Part shown: in pieces, positions 1,778 to 64,000 of the stretch | How the letters are laid out: each line of letters begins with the position of its first letter | Numbering within the stretch: the stretch's first letter is position 1 | Assembly (NCBI GenBank): GCA_041664445.1 | Contig: JBAYKT010000001.1 | Span: 29,890 to 93,889, forward strand | Length of the DNA: 64,000 bases | DNA from: Patescibacteria group bacterium | GTDB lineage: Bacteria; Patescibacteriota; Patescibacteriia; Patescibacteriales; UBA12465 | Reading direction: 5' to 3' | Notes under the pieces: model-generated | What the model saw: the letters and a program-made list of their open reading frames with translations, nothing else | Database searches by the model: none | Told to the model about the DNA's origin: nothing | Translations under genes and position numbers: made by a program

Positions 1778-4700
1778 TTAATTACTCTTATTATCCCAGT
1801 TATCCCAGATGTTAACAATTATATTTTTATTAGGGTTCTGATTTCCAACACTAACCCCAGTGGCAAGTGGGCCGTAATAATGATAGAAAATATGAGGATT
1901 ATTAGAGTCACTTCTTTGATCTTGACCAGTAATTGCCTGCTTACTATCATCACCCCAATTAATATAAATCATCTTGAGTGGCTGCTGTTCAGGGTCTACT
2001 ATAGTATTAAATTCTAAGCTGTAGACGCCAGAAACACTAACCGTATTTTGATCAACACCATTCAACTTCAATTTTATATTTTCAACCTTCGGCAATTCGC
2101 CATTCTGTCCGACTGGCGGCAACCAACCACCGTCATCATCTGGTAAATAACTGCCAGCTTGATACTTAAAGGCGCCGTAAGATTGCAAGAATAGCTCTTT
2201 TAAGATGTCCTTGGTAGTATCAGAATCAGGTGCTGATGTCCATAATGGCCGACAAACACCGAAACCGCCATCAGAACAAGTCTTTCTATTTATATAATCA
2301 TTATCAGCTCTAGTGCTGGGCGTACAAACCGTAGTAGCTGTTTGACAGGTGCCTGATTGGTCAACTATCCAATCACAACCACCGGGTTCATTTGCTCCTG
2401 GGCAGCGATATTCTTCGTAACTACTACAATTATTATTAATATTTGCTTGAGGATCCATTGATTCACAACGCCCAGAAGATCCTTCGCAAAACCCAGCAGA
2501 ACAATCCGCAGAACTATCGCAACTATCCCCTGAATCAACGTAAGTTGTTATGCAGTTTTGGCTTGAAATAGCACCCGTGTTATTAAATACACACATTACA
2601 CTTGGATTATCGCTACAATAACCGATATTATTGCAGGCTGTACCGGTACAACCATAGGGGCGACCACCAAAAACAGTGGCATCATCTTTTTGATAATATT
2701 GATTTTGCAAATAAACCGGACCGCTATTTAATAAATCATAACTACTCGGTAGGACCGAGGAACCGAAAGGTACCCCATTACGTAGGCGCCCATATAAATT
2801 CAAACCATTGGCGGCGGCAACATCATTAAAGAAAAATGGGGTATTTGTGGCATAAGCCGGATTGGCCAAGATTCCAGTTCTGCCGGTCCAAGCCTTATTA
2901 TCGCCATTACCGGCAACTACCTGCGCAAAATTACTGCAAGTAAAGTTAAAGACATCACTGCGGTCACCATTAACAGCGGATAAATATTTCAGACCAGATT
3001 CATCAAAGGCTGGATAATTATTGTCATAGATTCTAATTGGCGGGTCAGCATTTTTAGCTTCGTCAATTGGGAAACAATCACCTTGAGCAACATCGTCACA
3101 TGTACCCACTGGTTGAATTATAAATTCGCCATCATATTTAACCCAGGCCGAATCATAAAATTTGATATCAGTGCAACCAGTGCCCGAAACATCACCAATG
3201 TATTCAAGGCTCATAGCATTGCTCTCCGGACCAACTCCAAATAAGAAATTAGGGTTCCCTTGTTCCGCTGTTCGAGGAACGCAATAAAGATAATAATTAT
3301 TCCAACTAGCGACATCATTAATTAATATTGCTCGATAGTTAACGGAATCTCCACATCTGCCAAGTGCATGGCTAGCACTTAATTCGAAACAACCTTGATT
3401 ATCATCAGCAATACCAAATTGCCCTTTTCGGCTATCTGTATTATAAACCAACTTGGTCGTAATCTTCTTAGCAAAGGAAATATTGGCATCAACGTTCGTA
3501 CAATAACTTAAGCTGGTCGGACCAGAGTAACCCAAACTTTGGCGACCCAAAACCGAGGAACTAACCCTATCAGCTGGATACCAACTAATACAAACCGAAG
3601 GATTATCTTTATCATGTTCTAAACAATACCCCTCCAAACCATCCTTAATAACGTTGGTGCTTTGATTTTTACAGCTCAAGCTGTCATTGGTCGGATATAA
3701 ACGGCATTCACGTGCCGCATACTGGTTATTACCCATTGCTAAGACTGGTTCAATATTAATATCATCAAAATAAATTTCCCCGGCCTGGGTATTATCAGAG
3801 GAAAGTCTAATTCTTACTTGAACATTATTAAATCGGGCATCACCAGAGTTAAACTTACTTATCTTTCTAGCCCAACCGTTAGTACTGGAGGCTGTAAATT
3901 GGGTTGTAATCGTGGAATCTCTAAACTCAATCGTTATCTTAGCATCCGAACTAGAATTCTTAGTATTCAATAAATAATTCAAATAATAGTCTTGATTAGG
4001 CGACAAGTTAATCCAAGAATTAGCGGACATCGGATAGACATTATAAGTTGAAGGCACTTTCAAATAGCTCTTGCCGGAAACGGGGTAATCAACCGTCGCT
4101 TTTTCCGGCTCACGAATTATTAAATTCTTAACAATACTATCAAACAGACAAGGACCGCCGGTAACAGCACGAACACAAGATAGCGGTGGAATAATTTCTT
4201 CAAAATCATAGTGAGCTTCGCTATTCAAACCAACTTCCTTCATATTACCAATATTATTTGGAGTCAAAGAATTGGCGCTTAAAGAGGAATAGCCGGTCGC
4301 ATTTTCTAAAGGCGGGGGAGTGGCGTTGGCAATAAAATTATTACACTCGCCTTTATCGCTAAGGCTGTTGCATTGTTGTAAAGAATAACAAATCTTGGCT
4401 CCAGTTTCGGGGTCAGTGGCATACGTCGTGCATCCTAACCAGCTAGCACAAACTCTATCCGGTCTAACTTTGATAAGTTGGTTGGCCGCGCAAGAGCCAC
4501 TAATGGCCGAGTCGCACTTTTCTGGAGAACGTTTTTCCAGGGTCGCATATGGGTCAAAGGCGCCGGTTAATTTAGTATAGCTAATGGCCGCCGGAGTGCT
4601 GCTGGCGCTGGAAATTGCTCTTTCGTTAAACAGAATACAACCGTTACTAAAATCTTCAATGCCATTACAACTACCCTTATCTAGCGCATTTTCCAATTGG

Positions 4701-7700
4701 TAACCAATGGCCGCCTCCCTAATATCGGCGGAAGTATTATTAACTGTAACTGTAGTATTTTCAAAAGAATTAAAGACAATCGCCTTGGTAGTGGCGCTGA
4801 TTGATAAGCGGGTAACTTCACCACTATAATTATTATCAGCGAGAAGATATCTGACGGGAGACGTAAATGTTATAGCCGGAATACTTGAATTATTCTTACG
4901 CTCTATAACATAAAGGGTATTCTTTTTTAATTTTGCCGATGAGTCGCTCGTAATATTCAAATTAGGGTTAAGCTTGCTAACCGGGTCAATATATTCGCTA
5001 CAAGTTGAAGCTTGAATCTCGCATAAACCAACCTCCTTATTTGGAACTGGAACCCTATTCCCTTCGCCACCAACGCCGATAGTTTTCAGATAGGAAATTT
5101 CGCAAGCATAGTCGTTATTATCAATAATACAAGGTTTGCCGGCACAATCATTAGTGCTTAAGCAGCTAGGATAATTCTTTTCAGTTCCTGCAATTTGACC
5201 GTTAGAATCAGCGTCGCAACGTTTAACCGGAGCTAAATACCAACTCTTCTGAGACGCGGTAGTAGCTGCAGTCCCTGCCGAAGCATTACGATAAACGCAA
5301 ACTTTATTGCCCGGGTCGCGGAAATAGCTCAAACCACCATCTTCAGCATCCTTCCATTCTTCACAACCGACACCTTCTTGGCCACACAAAATAGTATCAT
5401 ATTTATTAGGATTGTTTTTCTTGAAAACATCAGAATAAACTTTACCGGAACCGGAAACTTGAGATTGACCCAATAAGCTGCAGCCTAAGTCGGCCTGATT
5501 ACACTGCTTGCTCTTATCATAAATAACATACATCGCGCTGTCTGCCTTAACTTTGGTGCAGTTCAGCTCGCTAGCGTCGCATTGACCATTGCGGTTATCA
5601 TCACCCCAGAGACCAACACCATAAGGATTATAATTTTGAGTACCGATTACTTGTTCACAACCGACCGAAGCCGAGTCGCAAATACCGGAGAAGGAACGAA
5701 GATTATGATTGACACTGGAACGGTCAGAATAAGCCGCGCAACCTAAATTGTATTCTGCCCCCTGATAAGTGTCATAAATATCGTAGAAACAAACGTTAGG
5801 AATTTGGCTGGAATTTTTAATCAAATAATAACGATCGGTAATTTCCGTTAAAATAAAGTTATCCAGATAAAAATTACCATTAGCGGTTACTGCTAAAATT
5901 TCTGTAGCCGCAACTTCGTGGTCTAAATTATCTAAATTAGCGGAGTAAACTTGCCAAGCACCGCCGGCAGCTACTCGAAGCGTATTTCCATTATTAAAGG
6001 CGGATTTGGCGCCAGTATCTTTATTATAGAAATAAAGCTCTAGATCTGCACCGCCAGCCGAACTGGCCAAAAATTTAATACTATACGATTTTCCCTGAGA
6101 AACGCCATTGCCAACTTTTAACTGTGCCGCAAGATTAGCGCCGGCAAAAATCTGTTTAATAAGCGGGCTACTCTTAGCTAAAACGTGGGTATCGCTGCCA
6201 ATTGCCGAACAGGCGCTAGCGCTATTATTATATAGTAATGAGTGGCCGTTCTTACTGCTGGAGATAGCGGCCAAACTAATGCCGTTAGTACAGTTAGATG
6301 TCCAAGCACTAGTATTATTTTCAAAATCGTAAGAAGAAACTAAGCGAACATTGTTACCGGTATTGCCATTATATTCACGGCAACCATTATCGGCGGCGCT
6401 ACAAGTTTTCCCTTCTCCAGGAATGCCTTGATAGACACAAGCTTGATGGGTATTATCCCAAACACCACCATTCACACAGACAGAACAAGCACCCGCGGCA
6501 CTATCCCAATGTTTTTCAACACCGGTGCATTGAGTCTGTGATAATTGAGAATCATAATTCTTATCAGTCATGCGGTAAGCGCGACAATCATCAGAACAAG
6601 TAATTACTCGGGAATTTAAGTGATAGAAAACTTGACCGGCGGCGTTATAAAATTCACGGCAATCAGCATTATAAAGAGCGCTGGTAACCGAAGCATTATA
6701 AATAGCGGCGTTGCATAAGGCGCTATCGTTAGAAGTTACAGCCGGTCCGTTATTGCTAGTATCTTGTTTTAAGCTGGATAATTTTAATTGATAACCGTTA
6801 TCCGTGCCCTCCCAAGAATAGAAACTGGCGCAAGTCGTTTGATTTGGTTTAACGCATTGTTTTAAAGCCGAGTAGTATTCTCTCTGTTCGCCTCCGGCCG
6901 CGACATCGTCCAAATTAGTAAACTCATTACAACCGACCGCTTCGGCGTTACATTCCTTGGCAGTTTTCGGAATTAAATTTTCAGCAGTAGTTGGATTGAA
7001 ATATGTTTGTCGAGAAACATAGACATCGTAACCGACGCATTCTGAAGGACAATAATCGGCATTAGAAACTTTAGCCGGAACTGAGAAAACATTATTTTTA
7101 ACTGATTTAAAGAGTTCGCAGCCAACTTCTTCCGAAGAGCATTTGCGGGCATAATTTGCGCATTTAGCTGGCGCATTCGCTTTCAAATGATAACTTAAAC
7201 CATCAGTACTTGTTTCATAACAAGCACTTTCCAAATAAGGTGGTAATAATTTTTGATAAATCTTAGAAGCACCGTAAGAACTATAACCGGTGTCCCAATC
7301 GCTCATTTCAAATTTAATATTTTTGACATATAAGACTACCTGCCCGGAGGCTGAGGCCGTTATGGAAAACATCAACTGGCTGATACTGCTGGCCTTCCCG
7401 ACAATACTCGCATGCTGCCAAGAACCGCTAGTGCTTGTTTGATAAACCGCTTGGTTAACGCCGGCCGGACCGATAGCCAGCTTAACGTTATTACCGGTTG
7501 CCAAATAAACATCAGCGCTTAAAGTATAGGATTGACCGGCCACCAAATCTAAATTAGCTGGCAATAAAGAATTACTAGAATCGGAAAATACTGAAACAAC
7601 ACCGGTGTTGCTGGATAATTTCAAAGCCTTGCCCGTAGTAGAACCGGGCTCAACCGCGCTGTCAACAATTATCGCCTGGAAAGAACCGCCAGCGGCTAAT

Positions 7701-9928
7701 GGCCAAGAATTTAAGAAAGAATTAGTTGAAGAAGCTCCGAGCGCCTCGCTGCTAAAATCAGAATCCATTACTAGGTTTGCTCCCCAAGTCGGCTTAATTC
7801 TAATGAATTCCGAACAACCCTCATCTTTAGAAGAACAATTTTCGGCATTTTTATTCAAATAAACATTTTGCGCCGGATTCCAAGTAATGGTACCACTGGT
7901 TGAGTTATAAGAACCATTATTAGAATATTCTTTACAACCAGCATTTTCTAAACTGCAATTACCATAATCAAGAGTATTTTCCAAATAAGCAATTTTTTGG
8001 TTGGAAGAAGTGTTGGTAAAAGCCTGGCAAGTATTGTTAACCGGGGCGCAGGAATCGCCATCAAAGCTCCAGGTTCTCTTCTCTTCATTACAATAACCGA
8101 AAGCATCGCAACCGCCGCTGCTGTTTTCCTTGATACAGCTTTGGTTATCAGCGCAATAATCTTCCGCGCGCACTACGGTAACTTGACTGGCAACATATTC
8201 ACTATATTGAGTAGCCGCTTGTGAAGGAGTAACGTTTTTATTTAAAATCTGAGCGCTAACGCCATCTTTTTTACAAAAATTAAGCGGCGCTTTCAAAACC
8301 CAATTAGGGTCGACTAGGCCAGTGCACCAGGCTTGATTATCATCATCGAAATCAGAACTAAAAGTACTATATTCATCATCAGGCGCAAAACAAGAGACTA
8401 AATCTCCTAAAGTTGCCTTGGTTTTATCATCGGGATTAGTGACATTATAATTTTTAATTTTTTGCAAAGCGGTTTCCCAGCTGAGTGGTAAAATACGAAA
8501 TTCTCTTAAAATAGCGATATTACGCCAAGAATAACTGCTTTCATAACTGCCCGGCAAACTATCAACCGTCAATTGCCAATCGCCGTGCAGATAACCACTA
8601 GCAATTGCTTCAGCAACTGTCTTTTTTTCGGTTATTCCCTGCATTAACTTATCATCAATCACACAGTTAGTGGGACCCGGATTATTTTTATCCGGACAAG
8701 TGGCTAGTTCCGATAAAATGTCATATTGGGAGCCATTCCCAAAGCTTGGGGTAATCAGTTTAGTGGTCACTGCTTTAAGTGCCACTTCACCGCCACCAGA
8801 ACCAGGATCGCTTTCGTTGGTGGTTCCGGTAATAGACGCCGTGCTGGCAGTTTTCTTACCGATATTTTGCATTAAATTGTTAAAAGCAGAAATAGCGAGT
8901 TGATTCAAAAAGACATTGGCGGCATCAACAAAGGCGTCACCGGTATATTTACCGAAATTAGCGGCATATTCAGCCGATTTAGATTCAACCTGAAGTTGCG
9001 CGGCATTAGGCAGAGTTTTAGATGACCCGCTAATAGCCAAGGAGTCCAGCCAACCGCCCTTACCCGTCAAGGTAGTTTTGGCCACTGATTCAGCTTCAAT
9101 TTTTTCGCCCATCATATCAGTACTCGCCGTCCAATAAATTCCCAAGTCGCTGGAAGTCGGATCGAATAAACTAGGTAGAGTTTTTTCCAAAAAATCAGGG
9201 CTGGTAACATCTTTATATTTAGCGGCGGCATCGCTCCAATTCTTAACCATTTGCGAAGCAGTACAGCTTGGTCCTTGAGGACGACTCTGATTAGCCAATC
9301 CTAAACCAATTTTAACTTTTGATTCTAAAGAAGATGGCTGACAAAAATTAACGGTCAGACCACTAGATTTAACACCGGCAGCACAACTGTTAGCCGTTTT
9401 TTGACAAGCAGCATTACAATTTAAAGCCTCTGTAGAATTTGATTGTCCTAAATAACGGCTAGCGCATTTACTAAGACAGCTTTGATAATCATCAGTACAA
9501 CCGGCCGTGCTGTTACTGCCCTCAGAATAATTGTTAGCAAAATTTTCTAAAAAAGTTCCCGCCGCTTCATCGCCGATTTGCGCCATATAGGCTCCCCAAT
9601 CCTGAGTAACAAATAATGGCTTTTGACCTTGTCCGCCGGAACCGACCCAATTGGCGGTATCATAGGCCATTTTATTCAAAGCGGTTCTAAGCGTTTGCTG
9701 AAAGGCGAGTGAAGCGCTTTTTTTCAAAAGAGTCCCCGATATATTAGTAATCTTGTCCCAAATTAATTTGGGGATATCAGTGACGACCATCTGTGCTCTG
9801 GCGACTTTTATTGGAACCAGCGCGACAGTAAAGATTAAAACACAAAACAGCACAAAAACTTTAATTTTTTGGCTTAAAGCTTGATGCTGCTTCTTTGAAA
9901 ATAAAGAAGGCTTCATTTTATTCTTCAT
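1778..9928 (-). CDS. Giant (2,716 aa) cysteine-rich secreted/surface protein with three jelly-roll (CBM-like) modules and a PKD-like C-terminal domain; putative adhesin
   Basis: Uninterrupted 8.15-kb ORF with an N-terminal signal anchor (VFVLFCVLIFTVALVPIKVARA). About 100 Cys by hand count (~3.8%). A G-C-x-E-[FYW]-type motif recurs. Three segments end in YVKNIKFE / FYLDNFILTEI / IYFDDINIEPV, typical of the last strand of carbohydrate-binding jelly-roll modules. The C-terminus has IYINWGDDS...NPHIFYHYYG (PKD-like WxFGDG...H.Y pattern). Confidence 0.9.
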   Translation of the reverse strand: MKNKMKPSLFSKKQHQALSQKIKVFVLFCVLIFTVALVPIKVARAQMVVTDIPKLIWDKITNISGTLLKKSASLAFQQTLRTALNKMAYDTANWVGSGGQGQKPLFVTQDWGAYMAQIGDEAAGTFLENFANNYSEGSNSTAGCTDDYQSCLSKCASRYLGQSNSTEALNCNAACQKTANSCAAGVKSSGLTVNFCQPSSLESKVKIGLGLANQSRPQGPSCTASQMVKNWSDAAAKYKDVTSPDFLEKTLPSLFDPTSSDLGIYWTASTDMMGEKIEAESVAKTTLTGKGGWLDSLAISGSSKTLPNAAQLQVESKSAEYAANFGKYTGDAFVDAANVFLNQLAISAFNNLMQNIGKKTASTASITGTTNESDPGSGGGEVALKAVTTKLITPSFGNGSQYDILSELATCPDKNNPGPTNCVIDDKLMQGITEKKTVAEAIASGYLHGDWQLTVDSLPGSYESSYSWRNIAILREFRILPLSWETALQKIKNYNVTNPDDKTKATLGDLVSCFAPDDEYSTFSSDFDDDNQAWCTGLVDPNWVLKAPLNFCKKDGVSAQILNKNVTPSQAATQYSEYVASQVTVVRAEDYCADNQSCIKENSSGGCDAFGYCNEEKRTWSFDGDSCAPVNNTCQAFTNTSSNQKIAYLENTLDYGNCSLENAGCKEYSNNGSYNSTSGTITWNPAQNVYLNKNAENCSSKDEGCSEFIRIKPTWGANLVMDSDFSSEALGASSTNSFLNSWPLAAGGSFQAIIVDSAVEPGSTTGKALKLSSNTGVVSVFSDSSNSLLPANLDLVAGQSYTLSADVYLATGNNVKLAIGPAGVNQAVYQTSTSGSWQHASIVGKASSISQLMFSITASASGQVVLYVKNIKFEMSDWDTGYSSYGASKIYQKLLPPYLESACYETSTDGLSYHLKANAPAKCANYARKCSSEEVGCELFKSVKNNVFSVPAKVSNADYCPSECVGYDVYVSRQTYFNPTTAENLIPKTAKECNAEAVGCNEFTNLDDVAAGGEQREYYSALKQCVKPNQTTCASFYSWEGTDNGYQLKLSSLKQDTSNNGPAVTSNDSALCNAAIYNASVTSALYNADCREFYNAAGQVFYHLNSRVITCSDDCRAYRMTDKNYDSQLSQTQCTGVEKHWDSAAGACSVCVNGGVWDNTHQACVYQGIPGEGKTCSAADNGCREYNGNTGNNVRLVSSYDFENNTSAWTSNCTNGISLAAISSSKNGHSLLYNNSASACSAIGSDTHVLAKSSPLIKQIFAGANLAAQLKVGNGVSQGKSYSIKFLASSAGGADLELYFYNKDTGAKSAFNNGNTLRVAAGGAWQVYSANLDNLDHEVAATEILAVTANGNFYLDNFILTEITDRYYLIKNSSQIPNVCFYDIYDTYQGAEYNLGCAAYSDRSSVNHNLRSFSGICDSASVGCEQVIGTQNYNPYGVGLWGDDNRNGQCDASELNCTKVKADSAMYVIYDKSKQCNQADLGCSLLGQSQVSGSGKVYSDVFKKNNPNKYDTILCGQEGVGCEEWKDAEDGGLSYFRDPGNKVCVYRNASAGTAATTASQKSWYLAPVKRCDADSNGQIAGTEKNYPSCLSTNDCAGKPCIIDNNDYACEISYLKTIGVGGEGNRVPVPNKEVGLCEIQASTCSEYIDPVSKLNPNLNITSDSSAKLKKNTLYVIERKNNSSIPAITFTSPVRYLLADNNYSGEVTRLSISATTKAIVFNSFENTTVTVNNTSADIREAAIGYQLENALDKGSCNGIEDFSNGCILFNERAISSASSTPAAISYTKLTGAFDPYATLEKRSPEKCDSAISGSCAANQLIKVRPDRVCASWLGCTTYATDPETGAKICYSLQQCNSLSDKGECNNFIANATPPPLENATGYSSLSANSLTPNNIGNMKEVGLNSEAHYDFEEIIPPLSCVRAVTGGPCLFDSIVKNLIIREPEKATVDYPVSGKSYLKVPSTYNVYPMSANSWINLSPNQDYYLNYLLNTKNSSSDAKITIEFRDSTITTQFTASSTNGWARKISKFNSGDARFNNVQVRIRLSSDNTQAGEIYFDDINIEPVLAMGNNQYAARECRLYPTNDSLSCKNQSTNVIKDGLEGYCLEHDKDNPSVCISWYPADRVSSSVLGRQSLGYSGPTSLSYCTNVDANISFAKKITTKLVYNTDSRKGQFGIADDNQGCFELSASHALGRCGDSVNYRAILINDVASWNNYYLYCVPRTAEQGNPNFLFGVGPESNAMSLEYIGDVSGTGCTDIKFYDSAWVKYDGEFIIQPVGTCDDVAQGDCFPIDEAKNADPPIRIYDNNYPAFDESGLKYLSAVNGDRSDVFNFTCSNFAQVVAGNGDNKAWTGRTGILANPAYATNTPFFFNDVAAANGLNLYGRLRNGVPFGSSVLPSSYDLLNSGPVYLQNQYYQKDDATVFGGRPYGCTGTACNNIGYCSDNPSVMCVFNNTGAISSQNCITTYVDSGDSCDSSADCSAGFCEGSSGRCESMDPQANINNNCSSYEEYRCPGANEPGGCDWIVDQSGTCQTATTVCTPSTRADNDYINRKTCSDGGFGVCRPLWTSAPDSDTTKDILKELFLQSYGAFKYQAGSYLPDDDGGWLPPVGQNGELPKVENIKLKLNGVDQNTVSVSGVYSLEFNTIVDPEQQPLKMIYINWGDDSKQAITGQDQRSDSNNPHIFYHYYGPLATGVSVGNQNPNKNIIVNIWDNWDNKSN

Positions 9929-56826: not shown

Positions 56827-56900
56827 GGGCCCTTAGCTCAGCTGGCTAGAGCACCTGCTTTGCAAGCAGGGGGTCATCGGTTCGAATCCGATAGGGTCCA
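56827..56900 (+). tRNA. tRNA-Ala (anticodon UGC)
   Basis: A cloverleaf can be folded by hand. Acceptor stem is GGGCCCT/AGGGTCC with the G3:U70 Ala identity pair. D-arm is GCTC/GAGC, the anticodon loop is cTTTGCAAg, the T-arm is ATCGG-TTCGAAT-CCGAT, and the discriminator is A. CCA is not encoded. Confidence 0.95.
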
Positions 56901-61370: not shown

Positions 61371-62107
61371 AAATACTTAGCAATAATTTTTTTAAATTCT
61401 TCCGGCTTATCTAAAAATGCGTAATGCCCGGCAGCCGGTATTGTTTCTAAAATCGCTTGATTGCTTAAATTTTTTAATTTTTCTGCCTGGCGATACGGTG
61501 TCGCCACATCATCTTTCCCCCAAATAAGAACAATCGGCAATTGTAATTTATAAAAAGCGACTTGTCGGTCCTCGCTAATTAATTTTTTATAAGTTTCAAC
61601 CATTTCCCCGGCTTCTAAATAATCAGGACTAAGCGCTTTCCCGGCCAGACGTTGCCGCCATTTTTTATTAACAAAAGGAAATAAAGCGCGAAAAATTTTA
61701 GCTCCGATAAATAACTTTTGCGAACGACCTAATCTCTCGCGAATAATCGCGCCACCCAGCAAGATTAACTTCTGAGCTTCCCTGCCAGAACTCAAATATT
61801 CAACCGCTATCGCTCCGCCAACGCTATGCCCAATAACAATTGGGTTCACAACATTTAATTTTTGCAAAACAGCGGCCACTAAGTTTGAATAGTCGACTAA
61901 ACCCCAATCTTCTTTTGGCACTTCACTGCCACCCCAGCCCGGCAAGTTAATCGCTAATAAATTAGAAATTTTACCCATAACCGAACAAAACAAATCGGCG
62001 GGCGATTTCCAGCCTGGCAGAAAAACAACTGCCTGATTAGGGTTGAAGTCTGAACTAATCAAATAGTTGATTTTTAGACCATTAATAATGATTTCTTTTT
62101 TTAGCAT
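61367..62107 (-). CDS. Alpha/beta-fold hydrolase
   Basis: Nucleophile elbow GHSVGG, oxyanion FLPGW and a C-terminal GHYAF. ATGA overlap with murF. Start set at the Met at 62107, because TGCTATAAT lies 6 nt upstream and a plus-strand promoter occupies the longer ORF extension. Confidence 0.82.
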   Translation of the reverse strand: MLKKEIIINGLKINYLISSDFNPNQAVVFLPGWKSPADLFCSVMGKISNLLAINLPGWGGSEVPKEDWGLVDYSNLVAAVLQKLNVVNPIVIGHSVGGAIAVEYLSSGREAQKLILLGGAIIRERLGRSQKLFIGAKIFRALFPFVNKKWRQRLAGKALSPDYLEAGEMVETYKKLISEDRQVAFYKLQLPIVLIWGKDDVATPYRQAEKLKNLSNQAILETIPAAGHYAFLDKPEEFKKIIAKYL

Positions 62108-62113
62108 ATAAAT

Positions 62114-62122
62114 ATTATAGCA
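62114..62122 (-). promoter_or_regulatory. Extended -10 promoter TGCTATAAT placed 6 nt before the ATG (leaderless mRNA candidate)
   Basis: The minus strand reads ggaTGCTATAATatttatATG, with ATG at 62107..62105. The architecture is identical to 32677..32694. Confidence 0.5.
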
Positions 62123-62161
62123 TCCTAGCCTAAAAACAGGAAAAGTCCAAGACCTAATTCC

Positions 62162-62191
62162 TTGACGGCTAAAAAGCAAATATTATATAAT
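62162..62191 (+). promoter_or_regulatory. Promoter TTGACG-N18-TATAAT (mini transcription unit 1)
   Basis: -35 at 62162..62167 and a consensus -10 TATAAT at 62186..62191. Confidence 0.55.
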
Positions 62192-62229
62192 AGCAACAGT
62201 TCTTATTTAATAACTAAAAAATCAGCATC

Positions 62230-62376
62230 ATGAAAAAGAAAAATTTATTGACAGCATTGCAGACAACAGTATCCGTATCCGGAACATTTGGCGAAAAAAG
62301 AAGCGAAAAAGGTAACGTAGCAACAGGTTTCGACTCCAGCGGGCAACAAAGTTCAAACATGCAACAAAGGAAGTAA
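62230..62376 (+). CDS. Possible 48-aa small protein (mini-TU 1)
   Basis: Hand translation gives MKKKNLLTALQTTVSVSGTFGEKRSEKGNVATGFDSSGQQSSNMQQRK. It is bracketed by the 62162 promoter and the 62403 terminator. No homology was recognised. Confidence 0.35.
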   Translation: MKKKNLLTALQTTVSVSGTFGEKRSEKGNVATGFDSSGQQSSNMQQRK

Positions 62377-62402
62377 AGAAAAGATGCCGGGTTTTAAAAA
62401 TG

Positions 62403-62436
62403 AAAAAGGTTGCCAATGGTAACCTTTTTTCTTTTT
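62403..62436 (+). terminator. Intrinsic terminator of mini-TU 1
   Basis: Stem aggttgcc / ggtaacct (one G-U pair) at 62407..62426, followed by ttttttcttttt. Confidence 0.7.
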
Positions 62437-62443
62437 CTCCTTA

Positions 62444-62472
62444 TTGACGACGAAAAATAAAGTAACTACAAT
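62444..62472 (+). promoter_or_regulatory. Promoter TTGACG-N17-TACAAT (mini-TU 2)
   Basis: -35 at 62444..62449, a 17-nt spacer, and -10 TACAAT at 62467..62472. Confidence 0.6.
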
Positions 62473-62478
62473 ATAAAT

Positions 62479-62786
62479 ATCTTTAAATTAAACAGTAAAG
62501 TAGATCTCCCTGAACCAATTAGGTTCGCTCGGAAAGATTCAATCGTTCTTTCTTAATTTGATAAGCCTAATTTTCCTCGCTTATCAAAACTATGCAAAAC
62601 GGATTTCTGAATTGTTATAAATCTTTTAAATTATGAGGAAATCATTCACACGCTTTTTTTATCAGCTGCAGAACCAGAGTGCATCTACATTGGCATAGGA
62701 CTCTATCAGTCATTGGTTCTTAATTTGATGAATGAATTTGATCAAGGAGGTTCCCTTCACAAAGGAGCAAAAAGAGTTTAAACGGA
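62479..62786 (+). ncRNA. Candidate ~330-nt non-coding (or micro-ORF) transcript, mini-TU 2
   Basis: The interval between the promoter and terminator has only 10-, 17- and 21-codon ATG-initiated ORFs that end before the terminator (plus one 41-codon frame that runs through it). Local hairpins include gataagc...gcttatc and gaacc-aatta-ggttc. No known RNA family motif was recognised. Confidence 0.3.
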
Positions 62787-62817
62787 AAGGTCTCTGTCTC
62801 AGAGGCCTTTTTCTTTT
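62787..62817 (+). terminator. Intrinsic terminator of mini-TU 2
   Basis: 10-bp stem aaggtctctg / cagaggcctt (62787-62796 / 62800-62809, one G-U pair) with a 3-nt loop, followed by tttttctttt. Confidence 0.8.
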
Positions 62818-62853
62818 ACAAAAGCTCGTCCTCAGCTCTGTTAACAAAGACAC

Positions 62854-62881
62854 TTGACCTTTTTTATTCTTTTGCTAATAT
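62854..62881 (+). promoter_or_regulatory. Promoter TTGACC-N16-(TGc)TAATAT (mini-TU 3), copy A of a duplicated promoter/leader cassette
   Basis: -35 at 62854..62859 and an extended -10 TGCTAATAT at 62873..62881. 27 of the first 30 nt are identical to 63424..63453. Confidence 0.6.
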
Positions 62882-62906
62882 AACAGCATCACCAAAATTT
62901 CAGAGC

Positions 62907-63248
62907 ATGACAAAATTAGTTTTTCTTGTTTTGATTCTGGGTTTTGGGCCTTACTCACGTGTTGATGGACCGGGAAAATCCCTGATGCTTATTATCCAAG
63001 CAGATTTTCCGTCACTTGAACGGGTTACTATCTTCGGTTTAGCGCCGGATAACCCCTCAAAAATCAACATTGATGAGCAAACGGCGCCAATTTTTGCCGG
63101 CGCCATGCACAATTTTTATTCCCGAAGTGGAGATTCCTCGTTGCAATGGCTCAGGCAAAAAGCTAAACCCGCAGGGCTTGCCATTTGGAGAATAATGGCC
63201 TGTCCCGTCGTATCAGAGGATAAATATCCTCACAATTCTCTGGCGTAA
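62907..63248 (+). CDS. Hypothetical 113-aa protein (mini-TU 3); coding status uncertain
   Basis: Track ORF with a hydrophobic N-terminus MTKLVFLVLILGFG. It is locally more GC-rich than its surroundings, with 127 nt between its stop and the terminator. No recognisable motif. Confidence 0.4.
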   Translation: MTKLVFLVLILGFGPYSRVDGPGKSLMLIIQADFPSLERVTIFGLAPDNPSKINIDEQTAPIFAGAMHNFYSRSGDSSLQWLRQKAKPAGLAIWRIMACPVVSEDKYPHNSLA

Positions 63249-63374
63249 CCATAACGCCGCAAGCTACTCCGCATGCATCGCGGAAAAATGTTCTTTTTAA
63301 GGATGATAATACCGAACTAACGCCGCCCTGAAAGCTGGGCTAGGCATCTCATCCCTTATTAATTTTCTCAAAAC

Positions 63375-63411
63375 AAAAGCGCTTTCCCAAAAAGAAAGCG
63401 CTTTTACTTTT
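63375..63411. terminator. Intrinsic terminator of mini-TU 3
   Basis: Perfect 11-bp stem aaagcgctttc / gaaagcgcttt (63376-63386 / 63394-63404) with loop ccaaaaa, followed by tactttt. Confidence 0.75.
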
Positions 63412-63423
63412 AAAAACCTTCTA

Positions 63424-63451
63424 TTGACCTTTTTTCTTCTTTTGTTAAGAT
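63424..63451 (+). promoter_or_regulatory. Promoter TTGACC-N16-(TGt)TAAGAT (mini-TU 4), copy B of the duplicated cassette
   Basis: -35 at 63424..63429 and an extended -10 TGTTAAGAT at 63443..63451. Confidence 0.55.
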
Positions 63452-63477
63452 AAACATATAACCTAAAATCAGATGCT

Positions 63478-63705
63478 ATGAAGAAATTTCTTTGCACTTT
63501 GATTAGCGGTTCCTTCTCGCTAGCCGAGCTAATGGCAGAAATATTTGCGAGCATCAACTATGCTTACACAATTCTCCATCAAGCAATGCTAGATGAGCAA
63601 CTGGTTTCAGCTGAGGTTGAAACCAAATTCAAAATTTCAAAAAAACGACGAAAAGATCGCTTGGTGAAATTTATGACAGAAGGAAGCGCGTTAGGGGCAT
63701 ACTAG
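63478..63705 (+). CDS. Hypothetical 75-aa protein (mini-TU 4)
   Basis: Track ORF MKKFLCTLISGSFSLAELM... with a basic C-terminal half (KISKKRRKDRLVKF). Its ATG is at the same distance from the duplicated promoter as in mini-TU 3. Confidence 0.45.
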   Translation: MKKFLCTLISGSFSLAELMAEIFASINYAYTILHQAMLDEQLVSAEVETKFKISKKRRKDRLVKFMTEGSALGAY

Positions 63706-63721
63706 CTAAAGAGGTACTATT

Positions 63722-63796
63722 ATGCCCCATTCAAAAATGAGACCGGCGTATCCTCTCGCCAAAAAACTTTTTCATATTAGATTTAGAGAACAATAA
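63722..63796 (+). CDS. Possible 24-aa peptide with one of the few Shine-Dalgarno-like sites in the window
   Basis: AAAGAGG lies 7 nt upstream of ATG 63722. Translation gives MPHSKMRPAYPLAKKLFHIRFREQ, and the stop abuts the terminator stem. Confidence 0.3.
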   Translation: MPHSKMRPAYPLAKKLFHIRFREQ

Positions 63797-63830
63797 AGGC
63801 AGCGCTCACGGGAGGCTGCCTTTTTTCTTT
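63796..63830. terminator. Bidirectional intrinsic terminator (mini-TU 4 / helicase gene)
   Basis: Stem aaggcagc / gctgcctt (63796-63803 / 63815-63822), followed by a long T-rich run (63821-63844). Confidence 0.7.
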
Positions 63831-63841
63831 TTTTCTTTTTT

Positions 63842-64000
63842 TTATTTTAAAACAAAATATTTTCCGCACTTCTTCGTTATTTGAAGAATATGAGAGAAAG
63901 CTTCCGCGATATCAAGATGTTCGCAATCAACGAAAGTCTGCGAATTACCGATGATAATCAGTTTTTCCTGAGCGCGCGACATGGCGACGTTCAAACGGCG
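63842..64000 (-). CDS. C-terminal fragment of a superfamily-1 helicase (N-terminus beyond window)
   Basis: Hand translation of the minus strand, in frame to position 64000, gives RRLNVAMSRAQEKLIIIGNSQTF...KYFVLK*. RLNVAxSRAxxxLxxxG is the SF1 (UvrD/Upf1/AAA_12-type) motif VI region. Confidence 0.7.
   Translation of the reverse strand, partial: RRLNVAMSRAQEKLIIIGNSQTFVDCEHLDIAEAFSHILQITKKCGKYFVLK

Follow-up and report, generated by a model that had tools for sequence, protein, structure and literature searches.

Several kinds of compact bacterial locus come closest to the one described here. CpxQ and SroC are regulatory RNAs derived from 3′ untranslated regions (3′UTRs). ErmCL, ErmDL and CatA86L are regulatory leader or ribosome-arrest peptides. 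The hok/sok and fst/RNAII loci are type I toxin-antitoxin systems, a class whose toxins typically measure about 20–60 amino acids (aa), and the preQ1-II and SAM-II riboswitches use purine-loop/pyrimidine-strand pseudoknots to sequester Shine-Dalgarno-like sequences. Genomes of Patescibacteria, the Candidate Phyla Radiation (CPR), contain many unannotated short genes, and very few non-coding RNAs have been described in them. The locus compared with these systems is a ~1.7-kb islet (positions 62,108 to 63,841) in a 64,000-nucleotide (nt) stretch of contig JBAYKT010000001.1, hereafter the window, on a chromosome assigned to an uncultured Candidatus Falkowbacteria (Patescibacteria/CPR). The islet consists of what are predicted to be four stand-alone plus-strand mini-genes, units 1 to 4.

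We consider it moderately probable that the islet is a lineage-restricted, recombining accessory cluster of four monocistronic mini-genes, which give rise to three small proteins that evolve fast and to a single structured RNA that carries a micro open reading frame (micro-ORF). The small proteins would act at or outside the envelope, and the RNA modules that the units have in common may give their transcripts joint post-transcriptional handling, be it in stability, in translation-coupled folding or through one bound factor. All functional statements about the islet are ours by inference. The comparison loci and contigs are numbered L001 to L097, and the gene list of L001 spans 20 kb.

Signals and variation of the islet

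A promoter scan and RNA folding show that each unit has its own predicted sigma70-type promoter (P1–P4) and intrinsic terminator (T1–T4; Table 1). The initial annotation had proposed four plus-strand promoter-to-terminator units, and all of them were recovered at the same positions. P3 and P4 both have a TG-extended −10 box. Promoter-like pairs with at least 10 of 12 consensus positions occur at 31 sites on both strands of the 64-kb window, and the scan of the islet region returned 24 sites against 14.8 expected. Because hexamer matches are this common in an AT-rich window, the argument relies on how the signals are arranged and on what other genomes show. Each promoter follows the preceding terminator and stands before an ORF or a structured RNA, so that position and conservation raise the four predicted promoters above chance. 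The signals of unit 4 are retained in L013, L093 and L094. None of 200 shuffles folds as well as T1 to T4, and a U-run follows each of the four hairpins. T4 probably serves both unit 4 and the convergent helicase gene beyond it; a T4-related GGCAGC..GCTGCC hairpin adjoins the 3′ end of the helicase in L094 and also in L095, which lacks the unit-4 gene.

None of ~40 window genes is preceded by a Shine-Dalgarno sequence, the upstream regions being just A/T-rich, which fits the loss of the anti-Shine-Dalgarno motif reported in many Parcubacteria (PMC9297842). Translation in the islet would likewise start without Shine-Dalgarno pairing. At the same hotspot in L016, L017, L020 and L025, GGAGA-type boxes are present at the small ORFs.

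On one side the islet is bordered by a minus-strand operon for an alpha/beta-hydrolase, a MurF-like ligase and Ddl, and on the other by a plus-strand polA-murD-murI-holA operon; the gene for an SF1B helicase (769 aa in L001) stands between the islet and the polA operon. The MurF-like ligase finds its matches in Candidatus Falkowbacteria genomes, and the database record of the unit-3 product, the 113-aa protein ORF113, reads hypothetical protein, Patescibacteria group bacterium. Within this frame the content changes from genome to genome. The gap between hydrolase and polA measures 95 nt in L024, with no content; 644–1185 nt in L025, L017, L016, L020 and L015, with other small ORFs; 1037 nt in L011, with units 2 and 3; and 1331–1447 nt in L009/L005, L010 and L007, with units 1 to 3. 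Counted from hydrolase to helicase, it measures 1351 nt in L013 (units 2 to 4 plus helicase) and 1731 nt in the window (units 1 to 4 plus helicase). The islet is accessory, a point that the initial annotation had raised by proposing a check for its presence or absence in close relatives. Judging from these alignments, small genes come, go and recombine in the gap, which makes it a variable hotspot. Direct evidence of recombination within the islet comes from L004, which is otherwise almost identical to the window: here 63263–63355, in the unit-3 3′UTR, is replaced by an L009-type allele. Comparison distinguishes three or more allele types of this patch, besides one minimal form in L094.

Units 1 to 3, signals included, recur in related Candidatus Falkowbacteria genomes, and in the orthologous islets of other species their signals are often better kept than the ORF bodies. 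The distribution is narrow, confined to one Falkowbacteria sub-clade. The species that keep these promoters and terminators, along with the ORF frames and RNA helices, show a divergence of up to ~30% in their core proteins.

The islets of L016, L017 and L025 (reverse complement, locus ~4440–5260) hold, at the same spot, a different small ORF of 45–55 aa that begins MRLYV.SSF... It has a covarying 3′ structure of its own, CCUGGAUAC/GUAUCCUAGG against CCUGGACAC/GUGUCCUAGG, and a conserved ACCCCCUC(A/G)AA immediately before the terminator.

Table 1. Positions of the features discussed (window numbering; P, promoter; T, terminator; UTR, untranslated region; AF2, AlphaFold 2).
Feature	Position	Strand	Basis
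Extended −10 box TGcTATAAT of the hydrolase-murF-ddl operon	62114..62119	-	sequence read; kept in L007, L009, L010, L011
Unit 1, span	62162..62436	+	
P1, TTGACG-18-TATAAT	62162..62191	+	11/12; aligned part (−10 box and spacer) invariant in L005, L007
GTTCTT-N(0-6)-ATTTRATRA copy 1, unit-1 5′UTR	62199..62213	+	motif scan
Unit 1 gene (ORF48), 48-aa hydrophilic peptide, conserved C-terminus TGFDSGQQ..MQQRK	62230..62376	+	orthologues, dN/dS
T1	62402..62436	+	−16.1 kcal/mol, z = −6.1
Unit 2, span	62444..62817	+	
P2, TTGACG-17-TACAAT	62444..62472	+	10/12; nearly invariant in L005, L007, L010
Unit 2 structured 5′ leader	62500..62623	+	RNAalifold, 7 lineages
Unit 2 hairpin A	62511..62527	+	RNAalifold, 7 lineages
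Unit 2 hairpin B	62531..62552	+	RNAalifold, 7 lineages
GTTCTT-N(0-6)-ATTTRATRA copy 2, unit-2 leader	62545..62564	+	motif scan
Unit 2 hairpin C	62557..62588	+	RNAalifold, 7 lineages
Unit 2 micro-ORF, conserved MRKSFTR[F/L]F	62633..62698	+	codon comparison across lineages
GTTCTT..ATTTGATRA copy 3, then small hairpin, distal unit 2	62716..62731	+	motif scan
T2	62784..62817	+	−16.4 kcal/mol, z = −4.2; equivalent in all orthologous unit-2 copies
Unit 3, span	62854..63411	+	
P3, TTGACC-16-TGcTAATAT	62854..62881	+	9/12; kept in L005, L007, L010, L013
Unit 3 gene (ORF113), 113 aa, hydrophobic N-terminus MTKLVFLVLILGFGP, diverged middle, APIFAGA, RQKxKxxG, variable tail	62907..63248	+	profile search
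Unit 3 conserved RNA domain, overlapping the last 25 ORF113 codons and the 3′UTR	63174..63306	+	pair counts
Unit 3 P1/P2 helices (P2: 63180–63185 with 63194–63199)	63174..63206	+	model-guided alignment
Unit 3 pseudoknot, loop GAGAAU with AUUCUC	63188..63193 with 63235..63240	+	comparison
Unit 3 P3 helix	63216..63231	+	model-guided alignment
Unit 3 P4 helix	63242..63258	+	model-guided alignment
Allelic variable patch, unit-3 3′UTR	63263..63355	+	allele comparison
Unit 3 hairpin, stem sequence different in every lineage	63268..63284	+	
Conserved GUUCUUUUUAA, unit-3 3′UTR	63290..63300	+	
Unit 3 long hairpin with exchangeable insert, GGAUGA/UCAUCC	63301..63306 / 63349..63354	+	
T3	63375..63411	+	−15.6 kcal/mol, z = −5.2
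Unit 4, span	63424..63836	+	
P4, TTGACC-16-TGtTAAGAT, P3 paralogue	63424..63451	+	9/12; kept in L013, L093, L094
Unit 4 gene (ORF75), 75-aa protein, basic C-terminus, one long predicted helix	63478..63705	+	homologues, AF2
Unit 4 3′ RNA domain	63691..63768	+	pair counts
Unit 4 hairpin 1, 10–12 bp, ORF75 stop region with 'ORF24' start	63694..63728	+	compensatory and wobble changes
Unit 4 loop-loop pairing, AGAGG with CCUCU	63710..63714 with 63752..63756	+	complementarity
'ORF24' (rejected as a gene)	63722..63796	+	
Unit 4 hairpin 2	63745..63760	+	pair counts
T4, between unit 4 and the convergent helicase	63795..63836	.	−18.0 kcal/mol, z = −4.9
SF1B (Upf1/IGHMBP2-like) helicase, 3′ end	63842..64000	-	gene list and library searches

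Proteins and RNA domains of the four units

Unit 1 encodes ORF48, whose orthologues in L007, L009 and L010 measure 43–46 aa. The ratio of non-synonymous to synonymous substitution rates (dN/dS), from a codon alignment built on the protein alignment, is 0.34–0.58, and we take ORF48 to be a real hydrophilic small protein on this comparative evidence. A protein search with ORF48 returned only itself, and no family.

Unit 2, found in seven lineages, is kept more widely than the other units, and its predicted transcript measures ~340 nt. In the seven-sequence alignment of its 5′ leader, 93.2% of the cells are paired and 7 pairs show a compensatory change, a result equalled by 0 of 500 shuffles; slid-partner controls reach at most 58% pairing, and G·U pairs (e.g., in L014) are compatible with the plus strand only. 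A covariance model of the leader, R1, matches the 7 orthologous sites only, and searches of the window, of 33 further loci and of viral contigs found no additional copy. A degenerate unit-2 pattern matched 58 loci in a metagenome scan, of which 57 were chance matches and one a duplicate of L011; its 4 matches in viral contigs were all chance. For the invariant unit-2 motif UCAUUCACA no trans target was found, its complement being not above chance elsewhere in the window.

About 35 nt beyond the leader lies the micro-ORF, whose length is 21 codons in the window as in L007, and 9 codons in L009 and L010. The peptide MRKSFTR[F/L]F is kept in 5 lineages while its Arg, Lys and Leu codons change synonymously; the Arg codons vary between lineages as AGG/CGC/CGG/AGA and CGC/AGA/CGT. 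The window and L007 differ by 3 synonymous changes and 1 non-synonymous change, and all differences between L009 and L010 (4/4) are synonymous. The codon comparison thus shows the predicted peptide to be under purifying selection. Since synonymous codon turnover is a coding signature, the unit-2 RNA would combine a long structured leader with a micropeptide that is translated. Its first description as an RNA with no or only micro-coding content was right in essence but passed over this conserved micro-ORF. A classical attenuator is not supported for unit 2: the strong T2 and the separate P3 follow, and no antiterminator complementary to a T2 arm was seen. In the near-identical strain contig L004:1–88 (aligned to window 62479–62566), unit 2 to the left of 62567 is replaced by unrelated sequence with another TTGACG; the contig is short, and this is either an allele or an assembly artefact.

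The motif GTTCTT-N(0-6)-ATTTRATRA is matched 3 times in 64 kb against 0.03 expected, each time in the islet and on the plus strand. The scan shows units 1 and 2 to have a putative GUUCUU..AUUURAURA element in common, and the GUUCUUUUUAA-plus-hairpin of the unit-3 3′UTR is related to the GTTCTT motif of both.

ORF113 belongs to a family of about 19 clusters of 95–147 aa, collected by a profile search of 1.84 billion representative proteins; the window copy is the best profile match (2e-49), and a 1442-aa repeat protein in the list was discarded as a false positive. Members have an N-terminal hydrophobic FLVLILsFGPfS, followed by APxFAGA, RQKxKLxG and a variable tail. The frame is open in 8 lineages with dN/dS of 0.2–1.0, mostly 0.5–1.0. 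In the AF2 model (predicted local distance difference test, pLDDT, 52.8) the N-terminal helix alone is modelled, which suggests an anchor or signal followed by a disordered remainder. The middle of ORF113 is 37–38% identical in nucleotides to L005 and L007, whereas its first 54 nt and last 120 nt are 88% identical to L005 and 70–78% to L007; the core proteins of the window/L005 genome pair are 94–98% identical. The middle exists in two allele types, which track the presence of the helicase module. The unit-3 product would be exported or anchored in the membrane, with selection on it relaxed or diversifying; this would suit a role on the cell surface of a bacterium that lives as an episymbiont or is exposed to phages. 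If the proteins are indeed exported or on the surface, they become candidates for the episymbiont's interface with its host or with phages. No ORF113 relative was found in viral contigs.

The L020 islet (island 608–820) contains a 70-aa ORF ending ..DKQKGII* together with the ORF113-family hairpin GGGUAUAAUA..UAUUAUACCC; it is probably a distant family member missed by the protein searches. L094 is probably a chimeric assembly, with an abrupt join to Falkowbacteria-like sequence inside its ORF113 homologue: the left part of this long-read contig (L094:1–5500) is GC-rich and carries an MCP-signal protein and other unrelated genes.

High dN/dS in ORF113, and small unannotated ORFs that have their own signals and no family matches, would also be seen in decaying, non-functional intergenic DNA that mimics genes, or in a locus for bacteriocins or other ribosomally synthesized and post-translationally modified peptides (RiPPs). 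Both are extremely improbable explanations. The conservation of promoters, terminators, frames and helices between species whose core proteins have diverged as described above speaks against decay. As for bacteriocin-like peptides, an option voiced at the outset, the ORFs show neither a double-glycine leader nor another that can be recognised, and transporter, immunity and modification genes are missing; the neighbours are core cell-wall and replication genes, namely hydrolase, MurF-like ligase, Ddl, helicase and PolA.

The end of ORF113 overlaps a conserved RNA domain. The domain's helices P1 to P4 are accompanied by a pseudoknot, and further downstream the long hairpin is followed by AAUUUUCUCAAAA and then T3. 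In the domain 96.4% of the cells are paired, with 12 compensatory pairs against 4.1 ± 1.5 in shuffles (0/500), and slid controls give at most 56% pairing and at most 2 compensatory pairs. The covariance model of the domain, R3, matched orthologous sites only; neither the window nor 33 additional loci gave another copy. The stop codon of ORF113 wanders through this structure: in L010 and L093 it is a TAG at window codon 94 (63186–63188), in L094 it stands before hairpin P3, in L097 the frame reads further, and in L007 a 4-nt loop insertion shifts it. The nucleotides downstream of the moving stop are conserved throughout, and because the stop codon moves while these nucleotides stay, the 3′ end of ORF113 would be constrained as RNA and not as protein.

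Unit 4 encodes ORF75, a protein of 73–75 aa among its copies. Homologues are P0005, P0007 and the L013 copy, with 79% identity in L093 and 73% in L094; dN/dS is 0.22–0.51, and AF2 (pLDDT 72) predicts helices at residues 2–10 and 15–73. The 3′ RNA domain of the unit has 90.5% of its cells paired and 4 compensatory pairs, one of them in the loop-loop helix, and slid controls stay at or below 56%. The loop-loop pairing covaries, as GGAGG/CCUCC in L094 and GAGGG/CCCUC in L014, and G·U pairs in L093, L094 and L013 are compatible with the plus strand only. The covariance model of this domain, R2, also matches hairpins at the end of ORF113 in L095 (E = 1e-5), L013, L011 and L020, in which a stem GGUAUAAUA/UAUUAUACC and a loop AGAGGAA are followed by UCCUC downstream. 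In L095 a compensatory ACA/UGU pair alters two amino acids of ORF113 and keeps the stem.

The initial annotation had given the units' coding content as 48 aa, micro-ORFs only, 113 aa and 75 + 24 aa, all of which stands except for the last item: 'ORF24' is not a conserved gene, and an RNA hairpin takes its place. The 3′ arm of hairpin 1 contains its ATG, which reads ACG in L094, its frame across hairpin 2 and the conserved GGCGUAUCCUCUCGCC differs between the window and L093, and its length is erratic, from 16 aa to open-ended in other lineages. Hairpin 2 also scores as terminator-like on the minus strand (63743–63762), downstream of the helicase. It could act as a back-up helicase terminator; the wobble pairs of hairpin 1 favour a plus-strand RNA.

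Units 3 and 4 are, as far as comparison goes, paralogues, since they have a common promoter, 5′UTR, hydrophobic N-terminus and RNA module. P3 with its 5′UTR (62854–62897) is 80% identical over 44 nt to P4 with its 5′UTR, and in both 3′ modules the GAGG or GAGA loop of a hairpin pairs with a downstream CCUC or UCUC. In a window without Shine-Dalgarno use these pairings are unlikely to be ordinary sequestration of a ribosome-binding site (RBS).

These modules also allow a reading in which the RNA domains, rather than the small proteins, are the selected products and form a new modular class of RNA in Shine-Dalgarno-less CPR bacteria. We regard this as unlikely. The class would comprise the GAGG/GAGA-loop module of units 3 and 4 and the GUUCUU-plus-hairpin module of units 1, 2 and 3, and would act as translation-sensing 3′ switches, as processed regulatory RNAs or as decoys for one islet-wide RNA-binding factor. 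In a related version, which we think distinctly unlikely, the regulatory products (processed 3′UTR small RNAs or protein-binding decoys) would be the leader of unit 2 and the 3′ domains in units 3 and 4, and the ORFs would be carriers or incidental. It would account for the 88% versus 37–38% nucleotide identity of RNA parts and promoters versus ORF bodies, the covariation that backs all three domains, the wandering ORF113 stop, the L095 pair that keeps the hairpin at the cost of two residues, and ORF113 dN/dS values up to 0.8–1.0. It does not account for ORFs of ~100 codons that stay open in about 19 clusters with the motifs FGPFS, APIFAGA and RQKxKL conserved, for ORF75 and ORF48 dN/dS of 0.2–0.6, or for the synonymous changes in the micro-ORF; no internal promoter or processing site was identified, and a motif search and inspection of 5′UTRs gave no target complementarity. 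Should the RNA modules regulate, they would show post-transcriptional control in bacteria without Shine-Dalgarno initiation.

Elaborate mRNA folds with purine- and pyrimidine-rich pairings that recall Shine-Dalgarno sequestration, hydrophobic N-termini on the products, autonomous promoters and terminators, and an accessory, variable locus are also what a type I toxin-antitoxin-like arrangement would display. In such an arrangement membrane-active ORF113 and ORF75 would be checked by their structured mRNAs and by the unit-2 RNA as regulator. Toxin-antitoxin function had been among the first suggestions for the islet, and we give it little credence. Products of 75–113 aa with long polar or disordered tails exceed typical toxins, and ORF48 is hydrophilic. 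All four units are co-oriented, and the sole antisense promoter-like site is weak (62499–62470, 9/12). Neither an antisense partner nor conserved complementarity was found: as noted above, matches to the complement of the invariant unit-2 motif do not exceed chance, and the 5′–3′ end or unit-2/5′UTR pairings that inspection of the window suggested fail to recur in the orthologues L007, L009, L010 and L093. The genome, moreover, does without Shine-Dalgarno sequences.

Several points tell against the accessory cluster of small proteins that we favour. The promoters, terminators and translation of the islet are predictions from sequence and comparison. The sets compared comprise few lineages (5–8), which are related, and relatedness alone can exceed shuffle controls. 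The unit-3 alignment (A10) was fitted to the nested helices of the model, and the pseudoknot lies outside that model; matches to a generic descriptor, a GAGR-loop hairpin with its complement downstream, show no enrichment relative to shuffles, so that the pseudoknots rest on comparison only. No factor that binds the common RNA modules was identified. The N-terminal hydrophobic segments are without a canonical signal-peptidase or lipobox site, which makes export a guess; the N-terminus of ORF75 contains acidic residues; and ORF113 dN/dS near 1 among close relatives is also expected of a decaying ORF.

The helicase module and flanking DNA

Every ORF75 copy is convergent with the helicase gene, and homologues were found only beside an SF1B helicase. 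Unit 4 and the helicase (~2.85 kb together) occur in the window, L013, L093 and L094. The closest relatives, L009, L010 and L007, have neither, and in them the polA promoter directly follows unit 3. Beyond unit 4 and the helicase, the match between window and L009 picks up again precisely with the polA promoter. By this alignment the two genes are an insertion relative to the closest relatives. No repeats were seen at the borders of the insertion.

The insertion, together with the tracking of ORF113 allele type with helicase presence and a helicase core like that of Mokosh MkoA, could mean that the small genes are cargo or partners of a horizontally acquired SF1B helicase in a mobile or defence-related module. 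We judge this very unlikely. Units 1 to 3 exist without the helicase, and L095 has the helicase without ORF75. A mobile-element accessory locus had been suggested initially, but the islet has no phage or plasmid match in BLAST searches and no relative in viral contigs, the 20-kb gene list of L001 contains no integrase or transposase, no flanking repeat was seen, and only unit 4 plus helicase behaves as an inserted module. In L095 and L096 no ORF75 homologue accompanies the helicase, and the stretch of ~310 nt behind the ORF113 homologue holds two terminator-like hairpins; unit 4 is thus not obligatory for the helicase. In L014, ~500 nt between the helicase start and the polA promoter consist of extra hairpin-rich, terminator-like DNA, by which the hotspot reaches the other side of the helicase in that lineage.

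The match to the PADLOC MkoA model (E = 6.3e-63) covers helicase residues 477–758, i.e., the C-terminal 280 aa, and the last ~300 of 1112 model positions. With the IGHMBP2 model of NCBIfam, the helicase scores far short of the cut-off. In sequence terms the protein is best described as a generic Upf1/IGHMBP2-like SF1B enzyme, whose likeness to Mokosh MkoA, an SF1B Upf1-like helicase core, is limited to that core; in contrast to the anti-phage system Mokosh, which has a full-length MkoA together with the phospholipase D (PLD) nuclease MkoB, or else the fused MkoC, the MkoA match is partial and the neighbourhood has no PLD-domain gene.

On the hydrolase side of the islet, the ATG of the hydrolase lies at 62107–62105 (minus strand). 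The hydrolase-murF-ddl mRNA is probably leaderless, because the extended −10 box ends only 6 nt before this ATG. Elsewhere in the window, 1778–9928 of the minus strand form a single 2716-aa ORF.

Comparison with known systems

Library searches set the islet apart from named families. At gathering thresholds, Rfam 15 found only a tRNA-Ala (at 56827) in the whole window, and a permissive search of 62000–64000 gave islet matches far below the gathering score, mostly terminator look-alikes. Pfam, PHROGs, NCBIfam and PADLOC returned no family for the four small ORFs, as the initial annotation had expected of products without recognisable family. It had also suggested a test for conserved secondary structure; units 2, 3 and 4 contain RNA structures that it had missed and that compensatory changes support, none with an Rfam match. 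Neither housekeeping homology nor strong purifying selection was found, dN/dS being 0.2–1.0 and family matches absent. A retron RNA was rejected for want of a reverse transcriptase, a T-box or riboswitch leader for want of a downstream gene, and 6S RNA, tmRNA, RNase P and SRP RNAs for want of an Rfam or ARAGORN match. Integron cassettes were rejected because each unit has its own promoter; no attC-like core was noticed, no search being aimed at an integrase. Nothing in the islet has the defining features of any named family tested, and the rival explanations weighed above have little or no positive evidence.

The islet resembles type I toxin-antitoxin loci such as hok/sok and fst/RNAII in its small genes, hydrophobic N-termini, heavily folded mRNAs and accessory distribution. 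It differs in its larger, mostly polar products, in its co-oriented units, and in having neither an antisense or overlapping RNA gene nor conserved complementarity. The preQ1-II and SAM-II riboswitches resemble units 3 and 4, where compensatory changes accompany the pairing between a GAGG/GAGA loop and a CCUC/UCUC farther downstream. In the islet, however, the pairing stands at the 3′ end of an ORF and not at the RBS, in a Shine-Dalgarno-less genome, with no recognisable ligand core and no Rfam match.

Three other comparisons are closer in kind. First, unit 2 is like the leader and arrest peptides ErmCL, ErmDL and CatA86L in its 9–21 codons, conserved peptide, synonymous turnover and long structured leader before the peptide, and differs from them in that its transcript carries no downstream gene, no antiterminator was found and no known arrest motif is present. 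Second, the RNA domains are like the structured 3′UTRs that give rise to CpxQ and SroC, folded and conserved RNAs that run from stop codon to terminator and are better kept than the ORF. Here the domain overlaps the end of the ORF and combines a pseudoknot with an exchangeable insert, has no Rfam match, and has no identified processing site, Hfq-type module or target. Third, the islet as a whole is like variable intergenic islets with strain-specific small ORFs: fixed flanks, variable content, mosaic alleles, the patch swap of L004 and unassigned products. It differs from these in regulatory and UTR sequences that are kept far better than the coding bodies, in a covarying RNA per unit, and in borders free of mobility genes and repeats. 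The locus is a clear case of recombination at a hotspot where protein bodies diversify and promoters and UTRs stay conserved. Its three RNA structures and two protein families are undescribed, and in kind the locus stands with small-ORF islets, structured 3′UTRs and leader micropeptides.

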